A DNA stretch of 64,000 nt from Escherichia phage vB_EcoS_VAH1, in sequence record MK373792.1; one strand, 5' to 3'. Made by a program: the position numbers and the translations under genes. This document shows, one piece after another, positions 4,069 through 53,560 of the stretch. Positions within the stretch are counted from its first letter, which is position 1. The number at the start of each line of letters is the position of its first letter. The notes under the pieces are model-generated. The model saw only the letters and a program-made list of their open reading frames with translations, had not been told where the DNA came from and ran no database searches.

Positions 4069-6636
4069 TTGAAAATCGCAGTAGTTGATAAAGCTCTAAA
4101 TAACACTCGTTATGATAAACATTTCCAGCTATACGGCGAGGAAGTTGATGTATTCCATATGTGTAACGAGAAGTTGTCCGGTCGTTTGCTCAAAAAGCAT
4201 ATTACTATAGGGACTCCGGAAAACCCATTTGACCCGAATGATTATGATTTTGTTATACTGGTAGGTGCCGAACCTTTCCTGTACTTTGCAGGTAAGAAAG
4301 GTATTGGTGATTATACTGGTAAACGTGTAGAGTATAATGGATATGCTAACTGGATTGCGAGTATCAGCCCAGCCCAGTTACACTTTAAACCTGAAATGAA
4401 ACCAGTTTTTGATGCAACAGTAGAGAATATCCACGATATTATCAATGGTCGTGAGAAGATTGCAAAAGCTGGTGATTACCGTCCTATTACTGACCCTGAT
4501 GAGGCAGAAGAATATATCAAGATGGTGTATAATATGGTTATCGGACCTGTCGCATTCGACTCCGAAACCTCAGCACTATACTGTCGAGATGGTTATCTAC
4601 TTGGTGTTTCTATATCTCACCAAGAGTATCAGGGTGTATATATCGATTCTGATTGCCTCACAGAGGTTGCAGTATATTACCTCCAGAAAATCCTGGATAG
4701 TGAAAACCACACTATTGTTTTTCACAACTTGAAGTTTGATATGCACTTTTATAAGTACCATCTGGGACTTACTTTTGATAAAGCACATAAAGAACGCAGG
4801 CTCCATGATACCATGTTGCAGCACTATGTTCTAGATGAACGTCGTGGTACTCATGGCTTGAAATCTCTAGCAATGAAGTATACCGATATGGGTGACTATG
4901 ACTTTGAACTAGATAAGTTCAAAGATGATTACTGCAAAGCACATAAAATCAAGAAAGAAGATTTCACCTATGATTTAATTCCGTTTGATATTATGTGGCC
5001 TTACGCTGCGAAAGATACAGATGCCACCATACGTTTGCACAACTTCTTCTTACCAAAGATTGAGAAGAATGAAAAACTTTGCAGTCTGTATTACGATGTT
5101 TTGATGCCTGGTTGCGTATTCTTGCAACGTGTTGAAGATCGTGGTGTACCTATTTCTATCGATCGTTTAAAAGAAGCTCAGTATCAGTTAACCCATAATC
5201 TGAATAAAGCCCGTGAGAAACTGTACACTTATCCAGAAGTTAAACAGCTAGAACAAGATCAGAATGAAGCGTTTAACCCGAACTCTGTTAAGCAGCTGCG
5301 CGTTCTTCTGTTTGATTACGTTGGCTTAACTCCAACAGGTAAACTGACGGATACTGGAGCAGATTCTACAGATGCAGAAGCTCTGAATGAGCTGGCTACG
5401 CAGCATCCAATTGCTAAAACTCTACTAGAGATTCGTAAGCTGACTAAGCTGATCTCTACTTATGTTGAGAAGATTCTACTGAGTATTGATGCAGATGGTT
5501 GCATTCGTACTGGTTTCCATGAACATATGACTACTTCTGGTCGTCTGAGTTCTTCTGGTAAACTGAACCTGCAACAGCTACCTCGTGATGAATCTATTAT
5601 CAAGGGTTGTGTAGTTGCACCACCTGGATACCGTGTAATCGCGTGGGACTTAACAACTGCGGAAGTTTACTATGCTGCTGTTCTATCTGGGGATAGAAAT
5701 ATGCAACAGGTATTTATCAACATGAGAAATGAACCCGATAAATACCCAGACTTCCACTCTAACATCGCCCACATGGTATTTAAATTGCAATGTGAACCTC
5801 GTGATGTTAAGAAGCTGTTCCCAGCTCTACGTCAGGCAGCTAAGGCAATTACCTTTGGTATTTTGTATGGTTCTGGCCCGGCTAAAGTAGCACATTCTGT
5901 TAACGAAGCATTGCTCGAACAAGCAGCCAAAACTGGGGAACCGTTTGTTGAATGTACTGTTGCAGATGCTAAAGAGTACATTGAGACTTACTTTGGTCAA
6001 TTCCCACAGCTTAAGCGTTGGATTGATAAGTGCCACGATCAGATCAAGAATCATGGATTTATCTATAGTCACTTTGGTCGTAAACGTCGTCTGCATAATA
6101 TCCATTCCGAAGACCGTGGTGTTCAGGGTGAAGAAATTCGTTCTGGATTTAACGCAATCATTCAGTCTGCTTCTTCTGATAGTCTCCTTTTAGGTGCTGT
6201 AGATGCAGATAATGAGATCATTTCTCTTGGTTTAGAACAAGAGATGAAGATTGTTATGTTGGTTCATGACTCCGTAGTTGCTATTGTTCGTGAGGATTTG
6301 ATCGACCAATACAATGAAATCCTGATTCGTAATATTCAGAAAGACCGTGGTATCAGTATTCCTGGCTGTCCGATTGGTATTGATTCAGATTCTGAAGCCG
6401 GGGGTTCTCGTGACTATTCTTGTGGTAAGATGAAGAAACAGCACCCATCAATTGCTTGTATTGATGATGATGAATATACTCGTTACGTTAAAGAAATGCT
6501 ACTTGATGCAGATTTCGAGTATAAGAAACTAGCTGCGATGGATAAAGAGCATCCAGACCACAGCAAGTACAAGGATGATAAGTTTATTGCTGTATGTAAA
6601 GATCTGGATAACGTGAAAAGGATTCTCGGTGCTTAA
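4069..6636 (+). CDS. DNA polymerase, family A, with 3'-5' exonuclease domain (T5 DNA polymerase-like)
   Basis: 855 aa; TTG start after RBS AAGAGGA. Exonuclease motif FDSETSAL; polymerase motif B RQAAKAITFGILYGSG; motif C LVHDSV. Confidence 0.95.
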   Translation: MKIAVVDKALNNTRYDKHFQLYGEEVDVFHMCNEKLSGRLLKKHITIGTPENPFDPNDYDFVILVGAEPFLYFAGKKGIGDYTGKRVEYNGYANWIASISPAQLHFKPEMKPVFDATVENIHDIINGREKIAKAGDYRPITDPDEAEEYIKMVYNMVIGPVAFDSETSALYCRDGYLLGVSISHQEYQGVYIDSDCLTEVAVYYLQKILDSENHTIVFHNLKFDMHFYKYHLGLTFDKAHKERRLHDTMLQHYVLDERRGTHGLKSLAMKYTDMGDYDFELDKFKDDYCKAHKIKKEDFTYDLIPFDIMWPYAAKDTDATIRLHNFFLPKIEKNEKLCSLYYDVLMPGCVFLQRVEDRGVPISIDRLKEAQYQLTHNLNKAREKLYTYPEVKQLEQDQNEAFNPNSVKQLRVLLFDYVGLTPTGKLTDTGADSTDAEALNELATQHPIAKTLLEIRKLTKLISTYVEKILLSIDADGCIRTGFHEHMTTSGRLSSSGKLNLQQLPRDESIIKGCVVAPPGYRVIAWDLTTAEVYYAAVLSGDRNMQQVFINMRNEPDKYPDFHSNIAHMVFKLQCEPRDVKKLFPALRQAAKAITFGILYGSGPAKVAHSVNEALLEQAAKTGEPFVECTVADAKEYIETYFGQFPQLKRWIDKCHDQIKNHGFIYSHFGRKRRLHNIHSEDRGVQGEEIRSGFNAIIQSASSDSLLLGAVDADNEIISLGLEQEMKIVMLVHDSVVAIVREDLIDQYNEILIRNIQKDRGISIPGCPIGIDSDSEAGGSRDYSCGKMKKQHPSIACIDDDEYTRYVKEMLLDADFEYKKLAAMDKEHPDHSKYKDDKFIAVCKDLDNVKRILGA

Positions 6637-42716: not shown

Positions 42717-43451
42717 TTACGCAACTTTTAATTTCTCAATATACTGTTGCGGGCTGCAACTATATTCTGCGCGTTCTTCTTCAGTCATACCTTCCCAACA
42801 TAATTGCAAGCGATCGGCTAGGAACTGATAATCATTATCATCCTCAAGAGATTCGTCAATAAAGGTTTCACCTATCAATGTGACACCGATTGATAGAATA
42901 TCATTAACGGCTTGCGCGTCCAGCGTTTTAAATCCGTATGATGCCGCCGCTGCCAATACTCCCTTATGATCGTCGATCATCGTGAAATCAGCGTTCGGAT
43001 ATAGCTGTTTAAATAGCTCAAAGTAATGACTTTTATATATAGCGTCCTTACTGTGGTATATTTCGCTAACCTTATCAGCTTCAAAATATTTGTGAAGCGT
43101 ATCGCGGGAAAATACACGGATATTACTATTTCCACGCCCTCGCAGTCCTTGTTTGCGCAGGTAATAATAATCTGACTTGCTCATCAGTCGAGCGGTACAA
43201 ATAACGTTTAACGTGTTGGCGTCATTCATGCACTGGCGCATATATGTAACAAGCGGCAATAGTGTATCTTGCATTATTAAATCATGTTTGCAGGCTTCAT
43301 TTTTATACTTATTTAAATCTAAATTGCCCTCGCTATCAAAGCAAGGCGCTACGCGATGGAAAGAATTGATGATTGTTCCGTCCAGATCCCAAATCATGAC
43401 GCGGGAAATATGCGGGAAATTACGGGTAATATTCGTTTTAACTTGATTCAT
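42717..43451 (-). CDS. dmp: 5'-deoxyribonucleotidase, HAD-superfamily (T5 dmp-like)
   Basis: HAD motif I IWDLDGTI; 244 aa; adjacent to the A1/A2-like genes. Confidence 0.75.
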   Translation of the reverse strand: MNQVKTNITRNFPHISRVMIWDLDGTIINSFHRVAPCFDSEGNLDLNKYKNEACKHDLIMQDTLLPLVTYMRQCMNDANTLNVICTARLMSKSDYYYLRKQGLRGRGNSNIRVFSRDTLHKYFEADKVSEIYHSKDAIYKSHYFELFKQLYPNADFTMIDDHKGVLAAAASYGFKTLDAQAVNDILSIGVTLIGETFIDESLEDDNDYQFLADRLQLCWEGMTEEERAEYSCSPQQYIEKLKVA

Positions 43452-43491
43452 TTTGTTACGTTCTCCGTTTAAGGGATTAGATTAATTCAGC

Positions 43492-43518
43492 ATTGCCCGC
43501 TTATAAATAGCGGGCAAT
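43492..43518 (-). other. perfect 9-bp stem-loop downstream of the A2-like gene
   Basis: ATTGCCCGC-TTATAAATA-GCGGGCAAT; no U-tract follows on the minus strand. Confidence 0.4.
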
Positions 43519-43531
43519 AATAAATCAACTA

Positions 43532-43927
43532 TTAAAGACCATAAGCCAACGCATCAGCGATAAAACTAATATCCTCACCTGATACATCGGAACGGATGCC
43601 CGCGCATGTAAATACCTTCGCGCTCATTAGCTGATCATCAAGGCAAGCGGGGCAAGGCGCGACAACTGCAAAGGCTAGGCCTGATTTCACCGCGTCGATG
43701 ATAATCGTTTCCTGTTTTACCGTGTCAATGTAAACGCCTTTCGCCTTGATGCGGCTGGATAGTTTGCCCGTGGTATAGGCGAAAGTCGTGATCTGAAGCG
43801 CCTCGTTAAACTCCATCAAATCATCAACAACGTGACCGGCCTCAACGTGATACCGCTCACCATTTGAATAAACTAGGACGATGGAAGAATGAGCGCGATC
43901 GAATGGAATACGGTTATTAATAGCCAT
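43532..43927 (-). CDS. pre-early protein, A2-like by position
   Basis: 131-aa ORF immediately downstream of the A1-like gene; called by synteny with T5 only. Confidence 0.4.
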   Translation of the reverse strand: MAINNRIPFDRAHSSIVLVYSNGERYHVEAGHVVDDLMEFNEALQITTFAYTTGKLSSRIKAKGVYIDTVKQETIIIDAVKSGLAFAVVAPCPACLDDQLMSAKVFTCAGIRSDVSGEDISFIADALAYGL

Positions 43928-43996
43928 GTTTATAACTCCAATTAATTTAATAAACTTTTATAGCGGCGGTATATTTCATCCGCCCGCCTGATTTAA

Positions 43997-45661
43997 TTAC
44001 GAGAAAAATTTACCATTTTTAAAGTCGATCAAGGTGCGTTGACCGTTTGCATAGGTAATAACATGCGTTTGTGTCCAGCTTGACGCGCCAACGTTATAGC
44101 CCATATCAAGGGAACCAGACACGCCAGCGGTATAAACGCCGCCGTAGATGCTGGCGGTGTGAGTGTGCCCCGTGTTTAATTTGCCCAATTTCTTAAACTG
44201 TTTTGGATTTCCACGGCTCCCGTTAATGCCGTTGTGACCATGTACACCGCACTCAATGCCTGCAATCTTGAAAGATTGATCAGTCGTTAGGAAAATTGCG
44301 TTAAACTCACAACCTGCAACCTTGCGCAGCGCATAATCTAGCACGTTGAAGGTGTCATCTTTTTCTGCAATAGCTCCGTAAATCGCAGCATTAAGGCGGT
44401 GATACAGTTCCGCGTTGGCTGGGTCGTCTTTAATGTTGGCGTTACGATCATCCAGCCAACGTGATAGCGCCAGATCGTGATTAGATTCAACAATGATTGT
44501 TTGACTAAAATCACGTTCCATCGATTCCAGCACGCGCCCCGTATCGATAAGATCATCCAGAACTTTATCACGTCCGGCTGCATATTGTTTTGCTAGGAAT
44601 ACACCGGACGCACGATTATGATGATTGCGCGATGTAAAATCATGCACGTCATGGATAAACTGATATTTTGGTTTAAGAATATCAAGCAAGCTATTTTCGC
44701 CAGCCCATGACGCAGCGGCGCAATCGTCATCTAATTTTTCGGCGTGTATGTCACCGTATTGTAAACCTAAAACATGCCCCGATGTTTCATAGCATCCTGC
44801 GGGAGTAGCGCAAACATTCAGATCATAAAACACGCCGCTTTCGTCCATCGTTTCAAGCTGGCGCACAAAAAACTCACCGTCTTCGTCGAACTCAACAATA
44901 AGCGCACCGAAGTTATGCAGCGCCTCGGCCTTTTGTCCTGCTTTCTGCTGGATGTAATTTTTTAGCGTCGCCGTGCCGGTTGAATACATACGGCGTACTA
45001 CTTCACCTTTTAAAGCTGGAACGCTTTCGGCGGTGATTTTAGCGTGACCAATTGCCAGACCTTCAAGATTAAGCGCGGTTGCAGTTTCAGCGAATCCAGA
45101 AAGCGGATAATCTGCGGTGGGCAAAACATTAATTTCAGCCATGAAAGCAAAGCGGCGATTGTTTAAAAACACGTTTTTATTGCAGATATATTTGTCAAAC
45201 GCGGAATCATATTTGATTCCGTCAGCACCTTCCCCATTTTGAAAACCGTTTTTATTATAAATATACTTGCTAACCAGCAAATCAGCGCCAATAAATTGGG
45301 CATATTGTTCAAGCGAGGCTAAAAAGTTTTTATGCGGGAAAGTATTATTCTGAATCGATGTAATAATAAAGCGTTTACCTTGTTTTACTTCCCAGCTTTC
45401 CACCGTGCTAGAAATAACTCCAGCGGCTTCAGGGCGGTCATCGTTTTTTATGGCTTTTGCTACTTTCGCCGCTTTTGGTTTCGCTGGTTTATTTGCTTCC
45501 AACCAGTCACAAATCGCGGTCGAGTGTTTTGTAGTATCATAGACCGCTTTTGAAATATCGTCGCAGACTTCCAGTTTAGTAGCGCGCAGACGTTTACCGT
45601 AGAAATTGAAATCAGCGGCCATTTTCAGGATAACGGTTTGTTTTTCTGCGGAAATAATCAT
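43997..45661 (-). CDS. A1: pre-early A1-like protein with calcineurin-like metallophosphoesterase motifs
   Basis: 554 aa; metallophosphoesterase-like motifs GDIH, ESNHD, GHTHT; higher GC than the surrounding genome. Confidence 0.7.
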   Translation of the reverse strand: MIISAEKQTVILKMAADFNFYGKRLRATKLEVCDDISKAVYDTTKHSTAICDWLEANKPAKPKAAKVAKAIKNDDRPEAAGVISSTVESWEVKQGKRFIITSIQNNTFPHKNFLASLEQYAQFIGADLLVSKYIYNKNGFQNGEGADGIKYDSAFDKYICNKNVFLNNRRFAFMAEINVLPTADYPLSGFAETATALNLEGLAIGHAKITAESVPALKGEVVRRMYSTGTATLKNYIQQKAGQKAEALHNFGALIVEFDEDGEFFVRQLETMDESGVFYDLNVCATPAGCYETSGHVLGLQYGDIHAEKLDDDCAAASWAGENSLLDILKPKYQFIHDVHDFTSRNHHNRASGVFLAKQYAAGRDKVLDDLIDTGRVLESMERDFSQTIIVESNHDLALSRWLDDRNANIKDDPANAELYHRLNAAIYGAIAEKDDTFNVLDYALRKVAGCEFNAIFLTTDQSFKIAGIECGVHGHNGINGSRGNPKQFKKLGKLNTGHTHTASIYGGVYTAGVSGSLDMGYNVGASSWTQTHVITYANGQRTLIDFKNGKFFS

Positions 45662-45757
45662 ATTAATAAAACTCCATTAAAGGGATTAAAAACGTTTGTT
45701 ATTGGCAAATATTGCCAAATATAACGCCTTGAATAATAGGCGTTATAATTTGCAACA

Positions 45758-45955
45758 TTAATTTAAAGGCATAAGGCTAGAACTAACACCACAAGCAACG
45801 GCAACAATAAAGCAAAGTAAGCCTAAACGCTTCGCTAGTTTAGATTTACGTTTAAAATAATATGAATCTAAATCATTTTGAAAATAAGCAAATAATAATG
45901 AGGCCGCCATAATAAATAAGCCTAGAATGAGGGATTCAGTAGGGTAAAAGATCAT
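45758..45955 (-). CDS. small membrane protein
   Basis: 65 aa with two predicted TM helices. Confidence 0.45.
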   Translation of the reverse strand: MIFYPTESLILGLFIMAASLLFAYFQNDLDSYYFKRKSKLAKRLGLLCFIVAVACGVSSSLMPLN

Positions 45956-46011
45956 TTTAAAACTCCAGTCAAAGGGAAATTATAGTGGGGAATATTCCCC
46001 ACTAATTAAAT

Positions 46012-46428
46012 TTATTCACCTGCGGCCTGTTTTACTTCATCGGCAACGCCCAATAGTTGCGCCACGGCGTCCAGCGTTTCCAATTTTGCGCTTTCCAGTG
46101 ATGCCAGATCGTCAGCGTCTTTGATAATGCCGGAATCGATGGCATGTTTTGCAATGACGCGTACATAATGCGCCTTGCGAATTGAACTGCCGCCGCCAAC
46201 TTTGCGCGGCTTATCGCTTTTCTGATACGCTTTTGCGCTGGTCAATTTTGAGCGAACAGACACGGGAGAAGCCGCGCCAACTGTTTTTGCAATCTCTTTC
46301 AGGCCGTCGCTGTTAGCGAACTCCAAGCCGTTTTCATTGATGAGCTGTTGATACATGGTAACAGCCTGTTGGGTGTTTTCTTCATTCCATGCGAATTTTG
46401 CGGATTTTTCGGTTTTAACGTTAGCCAT
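46012..46428 (-). CDS. hypothetical pre-early protein
   Basis: 138-aa ORF with RBS GGAG; preceded by an operator-like palindrome. Confidence 0.5.
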   Translation of the reverse strand: MANVKTEKSAKFAWNEENTQQAVTMYQQLINENGLEFANSDGLKEIAKTVGAASPVSVRSKLTSAKAYQKSDKPRKVGGGSSIRKAHYVRVIAKHAIDSGIIKDADDLASLESAKLETLDAVAQLLGVADEVKQAAGE

Positions 46429-46463
46429 GATTGTAACTCCTATCGATTTAATTTAAGGGATAA

Positions 46464-46512
46464 GATTAACATAATGTTAATCGTTATATACCCCGAACTA
46501 CTGGGGTATATA
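46464..46512. promoter_or_regulatory. operator-like 19-bp palindrome plus 10-bp-stem hairpin
   Basis: GATTAACAT-A-ATGTTAATC (46464-46482) and TATATACCCC-GAACTACT-GGGGTATATA (46485-46512). Confidence 0.45.
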
Positions 46513-46778: not shown

Positions 46779-47010
46779 GGTATAAACTCCAGTTTATTCA
46801 GTGGATTGTTCCGCATTACCTGCTGTAAAAATAGTGGCAGGTAATAAGTAACAATCCGCTCGCCATTATAATCAATTTAAAGAACTCCTCTCAGGCCGCT
46901 ATATCCCAGTTAGGGGGCGGGGCACATTATGGTAAGTGCCGACCGTCAAATTGTATCAAGTTATCGCTCTTATCGAACTGGGTACATCTTAAAGCCTATC
47001 GGCTAGGGTG

Positions 47011-47214
47011 TCAAACAATTTTTTGCAGTTTTTTATGATTTTCTTTCAAGTCAATCATAATGTTTCGCCAGATCATTTCCAGACCTTGCTGGCGGCCTTT
47101 CTTGTACTGCGTGAATCTATATTTTACGGATTGCTGAGCTATTGTCAACAATTTTTTAGTAGTACCATCCAATTTTTTGGCGGGTTTACCAGTGATCAAT
47201 AAAGTTTGTTTCAT
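47011..47214 (-). CDS. hypothetical basic small protein
   Basis: 67-aa Lys-rich ORF. Confidence 0.4.
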   Translation of the reverse strand: MKQTLLITGKPAKKLDGTTKKLLTIAQQSVKYRFTQYKKGRQQGLEMIWRNIMIDLKENHKKLQKIV

Positions 47215-47715
47215 ATCTGCGATTCCTTATATTATATAAGTTTTCCGCCGATAGACTTTAAGATATACCCAATTTTTAAAGAGCGCGGCGGTAAACTTCC
47301 CCGCCGTTGTAGTCCGTTGCCGTCCTACGAGATAAATAATAGGTGATTCCCAAAAATGGCGCAACCTTATTTTTGTAAAGAAACGTAAAGAAAGCAAATA
47401 ATCGCAGGGTGTCCGGCGATTGCCTAAGTTTAAAGGAAACGGGCGCGCGAATACCATAAAACCGAGCAGATAGGCAAGTAATTTTTTCATTTATATTTGC
47501 TTTGCCCTACTTGACAAATCTTAAAAAGCTCGTGGTAGCGATAAACGAGGGTAGGCAATGCAATGGCATACCTGAAAATTTTACCGCTTTCTAGGGCGTT
47601 TTAGGCGGCTCATTTTCGATTTAACAAATATTTAACAAAAGCAAAATTGAAAAATAGTTTGAAAAGGTATTGACTTTTTAAAATCAAGACTAAACGAGTT
47701 ATTTTATAAAATTAA

Positions 47716-48234
47716 TTAATTGACAATTCCAAATTCAGCTTTTTTAGTTTCTACCCATAATAATAACTCTTGTAAATCATAACCTGATTTACTAACACTT
47801 TTGTTACTAGTAGGATCTTTAACTATAGCGCGCAAATAGTTTCTTCCGTTATTATCAACTCTAGAACCATTATAATAGATATGCTTAGGCAACTTATTAG
47901 CACGCTTATAATCTTTCTTGTTATTCATATTCTGCTTATGATCTACTAAGCGAAGATTATTAATGTTATTATTAGCACGGTTACGATCATTATGATCGAT
48001 TGTTAGATTGCTATCAATCTCACCATTAAATAATACCCATATTATTCTATGCACTGCGTATTGTTCGCCTGCTAACTTTACTCGATAGTAACCTGTGTTA
48101 CTATAATGCCCTGCAATATCACCCACCTTACTATTACCTTTCTGTACTTTCCACCTTAGAAATGATGGGGATGTTTCATCATAATAAAAGTTATCATTAG
48201 CAAGCGAATAATCTATATCTTTAAATAGACCCAT
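47716..48234 (-). CDS. HNH homing endonuclease
   Basis: YAVHRIIWVLFNGEIDSNLTIDHNDRNRANNNINNLRL HNH motif; AP2-like C-terminal domain. Confidence 0.75.
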   Translation of the reverse strand: MGLFKDIDYSLANDNFYYDETSPSFLRWKVQKGNSKVGDIAGHYSNTGYYRVKLAGEQYAVHRIIWVLFNGEIDSNLTIDHNDRNRANNNINNLRLVDHKQNMNNKKDYKRANKLPKHIYYNGSRVDNNGRNYLRAIVKDPTSNKSVSKSGYDLQELLLWVETKKAEFGIVN

Positions 48235-48425: not shown

Positions 48426-48533
48426 TTATCCACAGGTTTATACATTTTGTAAATTTGATTGACACAATAGGAAGGCTTTATAGCACTTTTACACAGACTT
48501 ATCCACAGGTTATTCCACTGTATAAATATACAG
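48426..48533. promoter_or_regulatory. DnaA-box pair plus 16-bp palindrome module (copy 1)
   Basis: TTATCCACA at 48426-48434 and 48499-48507; palindrome CTGTATAAATATACAG at 48518-48533. Confidence 0.55.
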
Positions 48534-51227: not shown

Positions 51228-51422
51228 ATGAGCAATAAAATTATTGTAACCAAAACTACCACAATGGTTGACGTTTTTTATGTGCCCGATACGCTGGAAA
51301 ACCGGCAAGCGGTCGAGCGTGGCGAGTATGATAAAGTGATTTATGATCACGATGGTTATTATAAGCATTTGGTGGATTCCTACGGGGAGGAGGAAAAAAT
51401 CACGCATCAATTACCGGACTGA
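51228..51422 (+). CDS. hypothetical small protein
   Basis: 64-aa ORF with an acidic C-terminus. Confidence 0.45.
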   Translation: MSNKIIVTKTTTMVDVFYVPDTLENRQAVERGEYDKVIYDHDGYYKHLVDSYGEEEKITHQLPD

Positions 51423-51661
51423 CAACAAGCGGGGCGCAACTATCAGGGAGTGCCCCCAATTCTCAAATGAGAATGATTCTCATTTGACCGCGCCCGCGAT
51501 GGTTAGCCTGCTAATGATTAGGGTGTTACGTGTCGCCTTGTGTGATAGTTAGCGAGCTAACTAATTTTCAAGCCTCCTCCAATTTTGCCCTTGTTTTAGT
51601 ATCCCCATCAAAATAAAACGCGTTAGAATGCGATTCAGGGCGTTTTAGGCCTATATTAGAA

Positions 51662-51789
51662 TTATCCACTGTGTAGGAATACTGTATAAATATACAGTAG
51701 GATAAGCTGTGGATAAGTCTGTTGATAACGCTTCAAAATGGCTAGAATTCTGTCAAGGCAAATCGTGCTGTTGATAAGTCTGTGGATAA
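51662..51789. promoter_or_regulatory. cluster of five DnaA-box-like sites plus 16-bp palindrome (copy 2)
   Basis: TTATCCACT (51662-51670), TGTGGATAA (51708-51716, 51781-51789), TGTTGATAA (51720-51728, 51769-51777); palindrome CTGTATAAATATACAG at 51682-51697. Confidence 0.6.
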
Positions 51790-51814
51790 CTTAAATAACA
51801 GTGTTTCTCACTTC

Positions 51815-51980
51815 CATTCTTAAATGAGAATCATTATCATTCGTATTCCACTTTTTAAATGAGAATCATTTCACTTTTTAAATGAGAATCATTTCACTTT
51901 TTAAATGAGAATCATTCCCTTTCTTAAATGCGAATCATTATCATTCGCATTTCACTTTTTAAATGAGATTGATTCTCATT
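51815..51980. repeat. tandem array of about six ~21-bp repeats (consensus TCACTTTTTAAATGAGAATCATT)
   Basis: Direct reading: repeated TTAAATGAGAATCATT cores with sub-repeats CATTATCATTCGCATT. Confidence 0.75.
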
Positions 51981-51999
51981 ATCATTCGCATTCAGGCGA

Positions 52000-52017
52000 G
52001 CAGGGCAATTGCCCTGC
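52000..52017. other. perfect 18-bp palindrome GCAGGGCAATTGCCCTGC
   Basis: Perfect dyad, followed by a short T-run (GCTTTTG). Confidence 0.5.
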
Positions 52018-52022
52018 GCTTT

Positions 52023-52803
52023 TGTGCAAATCCGACATTTGCTCCAAGGGTTACGTGCTGGCGTGTATGTGCGAATCCGACAATTTTTGGTAGTGTGCAA
52101 ATCCGACCCGAAAAATTTTTATAGTGTGCGAATCCGACAATGAATTTTCCCAAAAACTCCAGCAATCACGAACTGCGTTCGAATCCTGTGGGATATGTGC
52201 AAATCCGACACGGTTTTTCTAGGATTAAGATGTGCGAATCCTACAAGATTTTTGTGACTTCGATGAGAGGGTGTGTGATTGTATAGGTTTGAGGAGAAGT
52301 TGAGAGAGCGAGAAAAATTTGGGGAGCTAGAAGGATGTGGGCGCAGGATTGGTGCGAAGCACCTGATTTGCGGGGATTTTGGGGAAGAGTTGAGATAATT
52401 TGGGGAAATTTGAGATAGGTGCAGAAAAAGTAAAATTTTATTAGCAAAATGGGGCAAAATAGCTTGACAAGTGAAAATTCTTGTGGCTCTAAAAACTCAG
52501 GCAATCATGGGCCTTCGGCCCGAAATAATGCTGCTATTTTCAGGAGAGTAAGAGTTCCTAAAAACTTAGGCGTTTGTGCAAATCCGACCATAAATTTCTA
52601 GAAATGCAGTGTGCAAATCCGACAGTAATTTCTGGAAATGTGTTTTCAAAAAATGTCTCCTAGAAATAACCGCCCTCCCTATAACCGCCCTGTATTAAAC
52701 CGCCTAGTATATGTAACGTTGGAGAGAAACTGCCCTAGAATATGTGCAAATCCGATGAATATTTTTGTGCTTATCAATTTCCTAGAATATGTGCAAATCC
52801 GAT
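52023..52803 (+). repeat. dispersed array of ten 15-bp iterons, consensus TGTGC(A/G)AATCCGACA
   Basis: Copies at 52023, 52068, 52095, 52125, 52196, 52231, 52575, 52610, 52743 and 52790, all in the same orientation. The last two lie in a duplicated ~35-bp unit; TGTGCTTATCAATTTCCTAGAA is also duplicated. Confidence 0.75.
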
Positions 52804-53176
52804 GAATATTTTTGTGTGATCTCTAGAATTTGTGCTTATCAATTTCCTAGAAACTTAGGAGTCTAGAAGAAAGTGTTGTGCCATCCTAGCAGATGAGCGG
52901 CAACCGGTGTATCATCTTGAACACAGATATTGCCTTTAAATATTATAAGGTAAATTAAAAGTAAAGTAGCCCCCATTACATGTGTGCTTACTCGTGGGGC
53001 GCGTGATTAATTACGTAAGTCCTCGACTGTCATACCCCTGTTGCTCGGTCGCAAAGAGTTAACGAAGTCTCGTGTAATAATCATCGCCCCTAGAGTTCAA
53101 AACAAGAGTTGTTTTTAATCTATGTGATTATTATAACATGTGCCGCAATGAGTTGTCAAGAAGATTTTGTTAACTT

Positions 53177-53560
53177 TTATTCCTCCTCTTCGAGATTGGT
53201 ATTGGGATCGTAAATTTTCTTGGCTCCTGTATTTAATAGGAATCGCTCTGCAAGTTGTGGGTGAATATCAAAGAACTCTGTGCATCCTTCGAATCCCTTT
53301 AAATTACAGCGGTATTTCTTAAAGTAGATATGAGCAGCGGCTTCTAGATCTCTAGGATTATGGGTTTCATAAATCCCATACACGTATAAATCGTCAAAAC
53401 CTCGATAGACTATCTTATCTAAGTTTAGTGTTTGAATCCTATTATGTGGATTCATACTGATACCGATCTTTGTTCTTTTAGGGATCTTCGTCAGATCCCT
53501 ATTTGCAAGAATATATACTTTATATAGTGACATTCTTTCTAGCCTTGAGTTTGATACCAA
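53177..53560 (-). CDS. T5orf172 (GIY-YIG-like) domain protein
   Basis: KVYILANRD...KIGIS...RIQTLNLD...YVYGIYETHNP...GCTEFFDIH matches the T5orf172 domain pattern; TTG/ATG start ambiguous. Confidence 0.6.
   Translation of the reverse strand: MVSNSRLERMSLYKVYILANRDLTKIPKRTKIGISMNPHNRIQTLNLDKIVYRGFDDLYVYGIYETHNPRDLEAAAHIYFKKYRCNLKGFEGCTEFFDIHPQLAERFLLNTGAKKIYDPNTNLEEEE

Follow-up and report, generated by a model that had tools for sequence, protein, structure and literature searches.

The 64,000-nt stretch of DNA analysed here (the window) is from Escherichia phage vB_EcoS_VAH1 (MK373792.1), a T5-like phage, and the three genes of interest, A2, A1 and dmp, all lie in its leftward pre-early operon. 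The names A1 and dmp given in the initial annotation are borne out, and the 138-aa ORF left unnamed there is identified as A2, which carries a DNA-binding protein annotation. Each gene is preceded on the minus strand, which is the coding strand, by a GGAG Shine-Dalgarno (SD) sequence, at 46437..46440 for A2 (ATG at 46428; invariant in relatives), 45672..45675 for A1 (ATG at 45661) and 43463..43466 for dmp (ATG at 43451), the latter two being conserved in relatives. Upstream of each GGAG, on the same strand, lies an element which we call the C-triplet box: TTATCCCTTAAA at 46452..46463 for A2 (CCC at 46459-46457, 16 nt 5′ of GGAG), TAATCCCTTTAA at 45677..45688 for A1 and TAATCCCTTAAA at 43468..43479 for dmp (CCC 6 nt 5′ of GGAG in both). 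It had been proposed that one and the same 12-mer stands just 5′ of GGAG at the three genes. The motif is indeed found at all three, but is exact at only two of them: the pattern T(A/T)ATCCCTTAAA has two copies in the window, at dmp and A2, and the A1 copy has one mismatch (TTTAA for TTAAA). Similarly, close juxtaposition holds for A1 and dmp, where a single nucleotide separates box and GGAG (T and C, respectively), but not for A2, where 11 nt intervene. The motif is also wider than first noted, with a box ATCCCTTWAAT located 5-17 nt 5′ of a uniform GGAG. A weaker box, ATTTCCCTTTGAC (45968..45980, minus strand; CCC 7 nt 5′ of GGAG), precedes the gene for a T5.005-like membrane protein, and inspection of the sequence revealed a degenerate one, AATCCACTGAA (46797..46807, minus strand), before a T5.007-like gene. 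The 5′ half of the latter is the 3′ arm of a long 5′-UTR stem (GGATTGTT...AACAATCC), and the same site reads AATCCCCTAAAT in many relatives. Across T5-like phages, the box-bearing genes of the operon are T5.007, A2, T5.005, A1, T5.002/003 and dmp.

TWATCCCTTAAA has exactly two matches in the window against 0.06 expected, and none of 100 shuffles reached two. With up to two mismatches allowed, the pattern shows no window-wide enrichment (23 matches vs 24 expected), nor does a position-weight matrix at a loose threshold (17 vs 16). The A1, A2 and dmp sites rank first to third by matrix score when both strands of the 64 kb are considered (16.7, 16.6 and 15.6, respectively), a ranking that is no independent test because the matrix was trained on homologous sites of related phages. 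All three boxes are on the coding strand, directly 5′ of an SD, and the 30 nt preceding the SD contain a box-like sequence at 4 of the 7 leftward pre-early genes, compared to 2 of the 68 other genes of the window (Fisher p = 4e-4). Of the seven genes that follow a spacer in T5 itself, counted from T5.007 through dmp, six feature the box. The same motif is shared by the initiation regions of one temporal class, at four to six genes of the operon, and is nearly absent elsewhere. Copies of ATCCCTT elsewhere in the window were considered as a source of an antisense partner and judged to be chance occurrences; the one closest to the operon (53291-53303, plus strand) appears inside an apparent minus-strand coding region. 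An Rfam search of both strands between 42000 and 54000 yielded nothing near the gathering threshold of any family. Most IMG/VR matches to the 16-mer with GGAG outside T5-like phages lack a downstream start codon opening a sizeable reading frame, and we judge these matches to be due to chance. No description of the C-triplet box, or of a T5 boxA (see below), was found in the literature searched.

Conservation in homologous phages, on which the initial annotation had made the motif depend, is very strong across T5-like genomes, and the motif stands. Of 181 distinct upstream regions, representing six operon genes from approximately 45 T5-like phages, 157 contain the CCC together with its flanks. 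Alignment columns of ATCCCTT are 96-100% conserved, equal to GGAG, compared to 81-86% for other intergenic columns. Values reach 100% for A2 (29 distinct upstream sequences), 99% for A1 and 96% for dmp, and the CCC is found in 26/29 distinct upstream sequences of T5.005 and in 18/31 of T5.007. The spacing between box and GGAG is gene-specific and itself conserved, at 6 nt for A1 and dmp, 7-8 nt for T5.005, 8-10 nt for T5.007, 14-15 nt for T5.002 and 16-17 nt for A2. Klebsiella Sugarlandvirus, Pectobacterium My1 and Proteus phage 1, with an A1 protein just 42% identical, all retain the box within spacers whose remaining sequence has entirely changed, and in front of dmp in Pectobacterium My1 it is retained even within the upstream ORF. 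Vibrio phages of the family show only a weaker AACC(C)A remnant, and the box was lost before T5.002 of both vB_EcoS_VAH1 and BF23 from an initiation region otherwise visibly unchanged; both points speak against the translation-element reading set out below. Invariance equal to that of the SD across genera cannot be neutral. A second argument comes from identical box-plus-SD repeats, up to 23 nt long, found on either side of the essential A1 gene in a single genome: because repeats of this kind are prone to deletion, their persistence argues for selection.

The spacers 5′ of the boxes feature intergenic hairpins, all on the minus strand. Two precede the A2 box (46464..46509; fold z = -2.9), namely ATACCCC..GGGGTAT (46509-46488) and GATTAAC-ATTAT-GTTAATC (46482-46464). 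Compensatory changes are evident between phages, with CCCC/GGGG flanks varying in pairs, and the second stem is replaced by GGCTA..TAGCC in Klebsiella phages. Two others precede the A1 box (45702..45747; fold z = -3.7), TATAACGCC..GGCGTTATA (45747-45720) and the palindrome TTGGCAATATTTGCCAA (45718-45702); here GGCGTTATATTTGGCAAT is almost invariant, Klebsiella phages included. A single hairpin, ATTGCCCGC..GCGGGCAAT (43492..43518; fold z = -3.6), lies 5′ of the dmp box, with compensatory variation in relatives (TTGCCCGC/GCGGGCAA vs TTACCCGC/GCGGGTAA). The box itself is predicted to be mostly unpaired (0.50-0.69), and when the segments from box to SD are shuffled around an unchanged CCC and GGAG, the real sequences turn out to be less structured than the shuffled ones (z = +0.4 to +0.8); of 101 instances, none falls in the lowest 5%.

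Transcription of the operon appears to be set far upstream of these elements. The genes dmp, A1 and A2 are regarded as a single operon downstream of the mapped pre-early promoters (bioRxiv 2026.04.02.716235). A consensus scan located a P-H22-like promoter (TTGACA-16-TAAAAT) at 47121..47148 on the minus strand, upstream of all box-bearing genes, and the T5 annotation places P-H22 at the homologous location. P-H22 was shown by primer extension to be active as a pre-early promoter in T5 (PMC7472727), and the characterised pre-early promoters, P-H22, P-D/E20 and P11, include none at the boxes (PMC7472727; bioRxiv 2026.04.02.716235). The operon leader also contains an rrn-type boxA (GCTCTTTAAAA; 47274..47284, minus strand), preceded by the hairpin GGCGGGGAAGTTTACCGCC and distinct from the C-triplet box. 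This is a perfect match to GYTCTTTAANA, the gamma-proteobacterial boxA consensus (PMC5725501); its counterpart in the E. coli rrnH leader reads AACTGCTCTTTAACAATTT, and it is conserved in every family member examined. This suggests that these phages borrow the host ribosomal antitermination machinery, which would let RNA polymerase read through a hairpin-rich operon. Taken together, box and leader boxA would explain how dmp, A1 and A2 can do without individual promoters.

The box is genuine and strongly conserved, and its most likely role is in translational control at the level of the messenger RNA. Three options had been offered initially, a promoter element, a processing site, or a binding site for a regulatory protein or RNA. 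The promoter is not upheld (see below), and a regulatory or translational binding site on mRNA is favoured by strand, distance to the SD, SD-like invariance and operon specificity; such a site for a regulatory or translational factor would agree with all of the evidence. Our leading reading, plausible but tentative, is that the box is an RNA element that works in cis in T5-like phages, within the translation-initiation regions of their leftward pre-early operon. The motif, its placement and strand, its restriction to one class, its deep conservation and the absence of predicted structure are observations, whereas its action on RNA, its role in translation and the sign of its effect are inferred. 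The operon would be transcribed from the far-upstream promoters as one long polycistronic mRNA, with the rrn-type boxA in the leader and its cistrons separated by stable hairpins. Every cistron would open with a module consisting of an A/U-rich open stretch holding (A/U)AUCCCUU(A/U)AAU, 1-12 nt, a minimal GGAG, 7-11 nt and the AUG. At positions -22 to -31 from the AUG, where the 30S binding site has its 5′ edge, the box may then be recognised as single-stranded RNA, either by the ribosome, through its platform or protein S1, or by a sequence-specific RNA-binding protein. Such a reader would determine, in a coordinated way, how ribosomes load de novo on all internal cistrons of one temporal class. 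In the version we prefer, the box would be a positive loading or standby element, which could double as a handle for class-wide shut-off.

Known upstream enhancers of translation, such as the epsilon sequence of T7 gene 10 (UUAACUUUA), S1 target sites and the cspA upstream box, resemble the C-triplet box in being short single-stranded elements immediately 5′ of the SD, shared by co-expressed genes with flexible SD spacing, and the cspA upstream box is likewise tied to one expression class. S1-dependent enhancers have a tract rich in A/U or pyrimidines and free of structure directly 5′ of the SD; the UCCCUUU of the box, lying in an A/U context and predicted to be mostly unpaired, is of this kind. 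The sequence specificity of protein S1 is loose, and does not account for the invariant CCC. The C-triplet box also differs from these enhancers in the invariant C-triplet itself, in its lack of above-chance 16S complementarity and in SDs that are not weak; its sequence is unrelated to epsilon except for a CUUUAA overlap. An epsilon-type, 16S-complementary enhancer was rejected: no exact complement exceeds 6-7 nt, the longest falling at another place in the 16S rRNA for each box, and duplex energies between box and 16S rRNA (rrsH) are no better than those of shuffled boxes, with 0.12-0.61 of shuffles at least as good, which is a point against the translation-element reading. Compensation for weak SDs was rejected as well. 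The SDs of box genes (-5.9 to -6.8 kcal/mol) are of ordinary strength relative to the median of -6.2 for 73 other genes (p = 0.66), so that the box does not obviously make up for a weak SD.

Alternatively, the box could be an operator for a sequence-specific RNA-binding regulator that, bound beside the SD of each cistron, jointly represses or inactivates the pre-early mRNAs, in the manner of T4 RegA/RegB, and thereby contributes to A1-dependent shut-off, a possibility that we consider serious but on the unlikely side. The regulator could itself be pre-early (A1, A2 or T5.007, among others), come from the early genes, or be a KH-type protein of the host, for instance NusA. Position, strand and conservation serve this explanation equally well, and a C-triplet that never varies within its A/U surroundings points to specific recognition more than to the loose binding of S1. 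The element is confined to its lineage, most IMG/VR matches outside T5-like phages lacking a start codon that opens a sizeable reading frame, and it drifts to AACCCW in more distant family members, as if its partner co-evolved. Pre-early shut-off, moreover, requires A1 by an unexplained mechanism (PMC10644984; bioRxiv 2026.04.02.716235). Nevertheless, A1 is reported to act via RNA polymerase, i.e. on transcription (PMC7472727; bioRxiv 2026.04.02.716235), and Pfam detects no RNA-binding domain in the pre-early proteins; the predicted model of T5.007 gave no informative fold match. The T4 RegA and RegB operators are similar in that a short motif is reiterated in initiation regions of one early class needing joint shut-off, with a uniform GGAG, but the RegA site lies over the AUG and RegB cleaves in the SD, whereas the C-triplet box is 5′ of the SD, and T5 has no known counterpart of either protein, nor did the present analysis reveal one.

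T5 is a classic model phage whose pre-early expression and minutes-scale shut-off are still unexplained, and an SD-like invariant box before A1, A2, dmp and their neighbours across genera provides a concrete, mutable target for the shut-off question. It is tempting to speculate, as a rather unlikely extension, that the box is the RNA operator of an unrecognised post-transcriptional regulon of Demerecviridae, in which a dedicated factor reads AUCCCUU beside every SD of the leftward pre-early mRNA and switches the class on and then off in conjunction with host rrn antitermination, hijacked through the leader boxA. If so, the A1-dependent shut-off of pre-early synthesis, long without an explanation, would become accessible at the molecular level. 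A phage-encoded factor could be A1, A2 or T5.007, all universally conserved among the pre-early proteins; a component of the modified transcription complex is another candidate. The box is also relevant to engineering T5-like phages or reusing their expression signals.

A processing site appears improbable. An endoribonuclease, either RNase E/G or one from the phage, would in that case cleave the box or its immediate surroundings, and so separate the hairpin-protected upstream cistron from the downstream one or inactivate the SD. A stable hairpin invariably stands before the box and the next SD after it, the compensatory changes in the hairpins are those expected of 3′-protective stem-loops, and the layout recalls the processed early mRNA of T7. 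However, RNase E prefers A/U surroundings with a U at the second base 3′ of the cut, which the three sites do not match consistently, and a C-run is no known determinant for E. coli endonucleases; the literature searched yielded no T5 RNA 5′-end data.

Two further explanations seem very unlikely. As a cis anti-SD, the UCC(C) of the box would pair with GGA(G) and partly mask the SD, acting as an attenuator or thermometer. Partition-function pairing probabilities between SD and box of 0.20-0.48 for five of six genes, the ATCACCC of Pectobacterium My1 dmp, a 7-bp complement of GGGGTGAT, and CCAAAA/TTTTGG in the T5.012 region, able to form a short stem, are consistent with such pairing. Inspection shows, however, at most 3 bp at most sites and only 2 bp at the AACCC sites of Klebsiella phages, such pairing gives no reason for the conserved UU or the third C, and a true anti-SD would read CUCC. 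Since the segments are less stable than the fixed-CCC/GGAG shuffles, the flanks do not support a helix; an SD-sequestering hairpin or RNA thermometer was rejected, with pairing probabilities of just 0.05-0.48 overall and flank-shuffle controls pointing the opposite way. As a DNA-level operator, the box would be bound by A2, A1-A2 or a host DNA-binding protein blocking or modifying pre-early transcription. The annotation of A2 and the AT-rich palindromes adjoining the A1 and A2 boxes could be so understood, and A1 dampens pre-early transcription (bioRxiv 2026.04.02.716235). Yet every copy points the same way and keeps a tight relation to the SD, neither of which a DNA site would require, the box is non-palindromic, and no copy lies at or near the pre-early promoters on either strand. 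Nor does it match the DnaA box or the injection-stop repeats: TTATCCCTT differs from the DnaA box (TTWTNCACA, quoted by Davison) at positions 7-9 (3/9), most copies reading TAATCCC, and the injection-stop repeats, TTTGGGGA runs and repeat families at 51.4-53.2 kb, are a different motif.

Least probable of all are three further readings of the box, as a promoter element, as a boxA (NusB/NusE site) in several copies, or as a relic without function that gene conversion has spread between spacers. The TTTAAT/TTAAAT within it resembles a -10 hexamer, but lacks A at position 2, lies at a distance varying from 16 to 21 bp between phages from -35-like hexamers (TTAACA, TTGCCA), and gave no minus-strand match at any box in the consensus scan for sigma-70-like sites; with the mapped promoters upstream and the annotations of T5 and BF23 giving no support either, a start 7 nt past the A1 or dmp box would fall inside or after GGAG and leave no ribosome-binding site, so that a promoter is unsupported. 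For boxA, CCCTTTAA is one base away from the core CTCTTTAA, the C-TTTAA is shared with boxA of rrn operons and lambdoid phages, and both elements follow a hairpin, but GYTCTTTAANA is mismatched at positions 1, 3 and 11 by the A1 box (TCCCTTTAATG) and at 1, 3 and 7 by the dmp and A2 boxes (TCCCTTAAA), positions that matter, and single changes abolish boxA function in suhB (PMC5725501). Whereas boxA is placed once after a promoter, the C-triplet box is repeated before each cistron beside the SD, and the perfect leader boxA is retained as a separate class of element in every phage examined. Long identical box-plus-SD stretches within single genomes would suit a relic, but invariance equal to the SD across genera would not. 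A reiterated hairpin-plus-signal module flanking small, shuffled early ORFs is also known from the PeSL cassettes (early promoter plus stem-loop) of T4-like phages; the T5 module differs in having no promoter, and in similarity that extends between the spacers of one genome and to distant genera, beyond alleles of one site. Gene content between the T5 modules is likewise variable in relatives, with T5.003 present or absent and alternative alleles of T5.005 and T5.002.

The stretch belongs to a T5-like phage and is approximately 91% identical to BF23; its genes were assigned from the T5 and BF23 records and from family searches. The minus strand carries a T5.008/hdi-like gene (47214-47011), T5.007 (DUF7177, 46778-46527), A2 (46428-46012; the 138-aa ORF of the initial annotation), the membrane protein gene T5.005 (45955-45758), A1 (45661-43997), T5.002 (43927-43532) and dmp (43451-42717). 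This gene set constitutes the terminal repeat's leftward pre-early operon.

An ATCCCTT-type motif, here called the C-triplet box, lies 5′ of the GGAG Shine-Dalgarno sequence (SD) of A2 (TTATCCCTTAAA, 46463-46452), A1 (TAATCCCTTTAA, 45688-45677) and dmp (TAATCCCTTAAA, 43479-43468). Re-reading of the sequence located all three sites on the minus, i.e. coding, strand, at the positions initially noted. The description of these sites as a single 12-mer situated just 5′ of GGAG holds in part: the degenerate 12-mer is matched exactly at two genes (0.06 matches expected in the window) and with one mismatch at A1, and only one base separates the box from GGAG at A1 and dmp, while at A2 it lies 11 nt upstream. 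Loose matching revealed no enrichment of the motif across the whole window. The three sites have the top three matrix scores on both strands of the 64 kb, which is a consistency check and not an independent test, as the matrix was built from homologous sites in relatives. A box-like sequence no more than 30 nt upstream of the SD is found in 4 of 7 leftward and 1 of 4 rightward pre-early genes of the window, and the leftward proportion compares with 2/68 for other genes (Fisher test, p = 4e-4). The region upstream of T5.002 (43928-43996, minus strand) has no box in this phage or in BF23, and reads TATAAAAGTTTATTAAATTAATTGGAG where most relatives have ATCCCTTATTAAAYTAATTGGAG. T5.003 is also missing in the window phage, so that this spacer looks like a deletion junction.

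The initial annotation had pointed to T5-like genomes as the place to look for conservation, and the box is indeed kept there, at nearly all genes of the operon and thus beyond the three first reported. Upstream regions (80 nt per homologous gene) were extracted from 58 related loci, drawn from IMG/VR and GenBank, and 157 box instances among 181 distinct upstream sequences gave the consensus A-T-C-C-C-T-T-W-A-A-T, anchored on the C-triplet (CCC). The spacing from CCC to GGAG is gene-specific and conserved across relatives: 6 nt for A1 and dmp, 7–8 nt for T5.005, 8–10 nt for T5.007, 14–15 nt for T5.002 and 16–17 nt for A2. In spacer alignments, the share of sequences agreeing with the consensus over ATCCCTT is 100% for A2, 99% for A1 and 96% for dmp, compared to 100% for the GGAG columns and 81–86% for other spacer columns. 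T5 itself has the box at 6 of 7 spacer-preceded genes, from T5.007 to dmp, and a variant at one gene of its rightward operon (T5.012). The box is also kept in Klebsiella Sugarlandvirus (TTAACCCTTAAA, TATATCCCATTAAC), at five genes of Pectobacterium phage My1 (e.g. TCTATCCCTTAATTGGAG) and at four genes of Proteus phage 1 (e.g. ATTTTCCCTTTAATTAGGAG), whose A1 is 42% identical; in Vibrio phages of the family only AACC(C)A is left. A scan of IMG/VR with a 16-mer including GGAG returned T5-like phages and scattered matches elsewhere. For most of the latter, no start codon with a sizeable ORF follows, and they were judged to be chance matches.

All copies of the box share one orientation, and each lies between the SD and either a stable intercistronic hairpin or a stop codon. 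The box is positioned at -22 to -31 relative to the AUG, corresponding to the 5′ edge of the 30S footprint, is as invariant as the SD, and is surrounded by sequence that avoids structure. Taken together, these five properties argue for a function at the transcript level, in the translation-initiation region. The box most likely represents a class-specific upstream element of initiation regions that would control how ribosomes load on each internal cistron. In the preferred version it would be a positive loading or standby site, which the 30S platform or protein S1 would contact as single-stranded RNA. Almost as likely, the box is read by a regulator with sequence specificity, which would repress or inactivate all pre-early cistrons as a group; this would account for the invariant C-triplet better than a loading or standby site does. 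A processing site, also proposed initially, is possible as well, with cleavage by an endonuclease. Short upstream signals common to the initiation regions of one temporal class are an already known kind of element. In the literature searched, the C-triplet box itself, the depth of its conservation and its restriction to the pre-early operon of Demerecviridae appear to be undescribed. The finding is real and moderately interesting, and the mechanism is directly testable.

The initial suggestion of a shared promoter element had to be abandoned. No consensus site is present at any box, the distance between a -35-like hexamer and the box differs between phages, and transcription starting at the A1 and dmp boxes would remove the SD. 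The characterised pre-early promoters lie elsewhere (P-H22 and P-D/E20, upstream of T5.007/T5.008, and P11), with good promoter matches at homologous places of the window (47148-47121, 47014-46986 and 46894-46865), and dmp, A1 and A2 have been treated as one operon. A hairpin sequestering the SD in cis was also rejected: the predicted chance of SD-box pairing is 0.05–0.48, UCC:GGA is the only pairing able to form, and shuffling with CCC and GGAG kept in place yields more stable folds than the natural box-to-SD segments have (mean z = +0.4 to +0.8 for the latter, with 0 of 101 instances in the lowest 5%). Only upstream of dmp in My1 (locus L059, ~6140-6178) could a strong box:SD stem form: there, a box-like ATCACCC inside the preceding ORF is complementary over 7 bp to GGGGTGAT, spanning the SD up to the AUG. 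The resemblance of the box to boxA, the rrn-type Nus-factor site (CCCTTTAA vs CTCTTTAA), led us to compare it with the published boxA consensus GYTCTTTAANA. It is not a boxA: it deviates at positions 1 and 3 and additionally at 7 or 11, and in the suhB boxA a single substitution is enough to abolish function (PMC5725501). As 16S-complementary enhancers, boxes perform no better than their own shuffles and pair at differing places of the real rrsH sequence. Compensation for weak SDs does not apply either, with SD:anti-SD energies of -5.9 to -6.8 kcal/mol, the median of 73 other genes being -6.2. Finally, the box matches no known RNA family, is not a DnaA box and is not part of the injection-stop repeats.

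The intercistronic hairpins are predicted to be much more stable than shuffles (z = -2.9 to -4.7) and feature compensatory changes between phages, as expected for an mRNA synthesised as a single long transcript. Immediately 5′ of the A1 box (45702-45718, minus strand) and of the A2 box (46464-46482, minus strand) are AT-rich palindromes; TTGGCAATATTTGCCAA, together with the GGCGTTATAT before it, hardly varies, Klebsiella phages included. In the latter, GATTAAC-ATTAT-GTTAATC is replaced by GGCTA-ACTTTC-TAGCC, a compensatory swap of the stem which indicates a hairpin rather than a sequence-specific site.

A genuine boxA, separate from the C-triplet box, is found in the operon leader: GCTCTTTAAAA (47284-47274, minus strand), directly preceded by the hairpin GGCGGGGAAGTTTACCGCC (~47304-47286), is a perfect match to the consensus. 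All Demerecviridae loci examined carry it (T5-like, Epseptimavirus, Klebsiella, Pectobacterium, Proteus and Vibrio phages), among them related loci L001 (4988, minus strand) and L054-L062, and it often follows a strong promoter (TTGACA...TAAGAT or TATAAT) by 15–20 nt. Proteus phage 1 has up to five copies, and over 19 nt the Epseptimavirus copy (AACTGCTCTTTAACAATTT) does not differ from the E. coli rrnH leader. These observations suggest that the host Nus/rrn antitermination system is used in pre-early transcription, which would explain how hairpin-rich spacers are read through and why internal promoters are missing. No paper with both “boxA” and “bacteriophage T5” was retrieved from the literature searched. 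As in T5, an inserted HNH homing-endonuclease gene (hegG-like, Pfam HNH_3; 47716-48234, minus strand) separates the upstream pre-early promoter region from the boxA leader; the insert is absent from most T5-like phages.

Other repeats were noted as well. The injection-stop region (51400-53200) is dense with direct repeats, i.e. CACTTTTTAAATGAGAATCATT (7 copies), TGTGCAAATCCGAC (about 9 copies) and TTTGGGGAAGAGTTGAGATA units; the C-triplet box is unrelated to any of these. The sequence cctgtggataa occurs twice in the minus reading at ~48430-48510, and GCTGTGGATAAGTCTGTTGATAAC twice on the plus strand at 51706-51790. Both are paired DnaA boxes (TGTGGATAA, equivalent to TTATCCACA), which are located in untranslated repeat regions of the terminal repeat and fit the arrangement described by Davison for T5-like phages.
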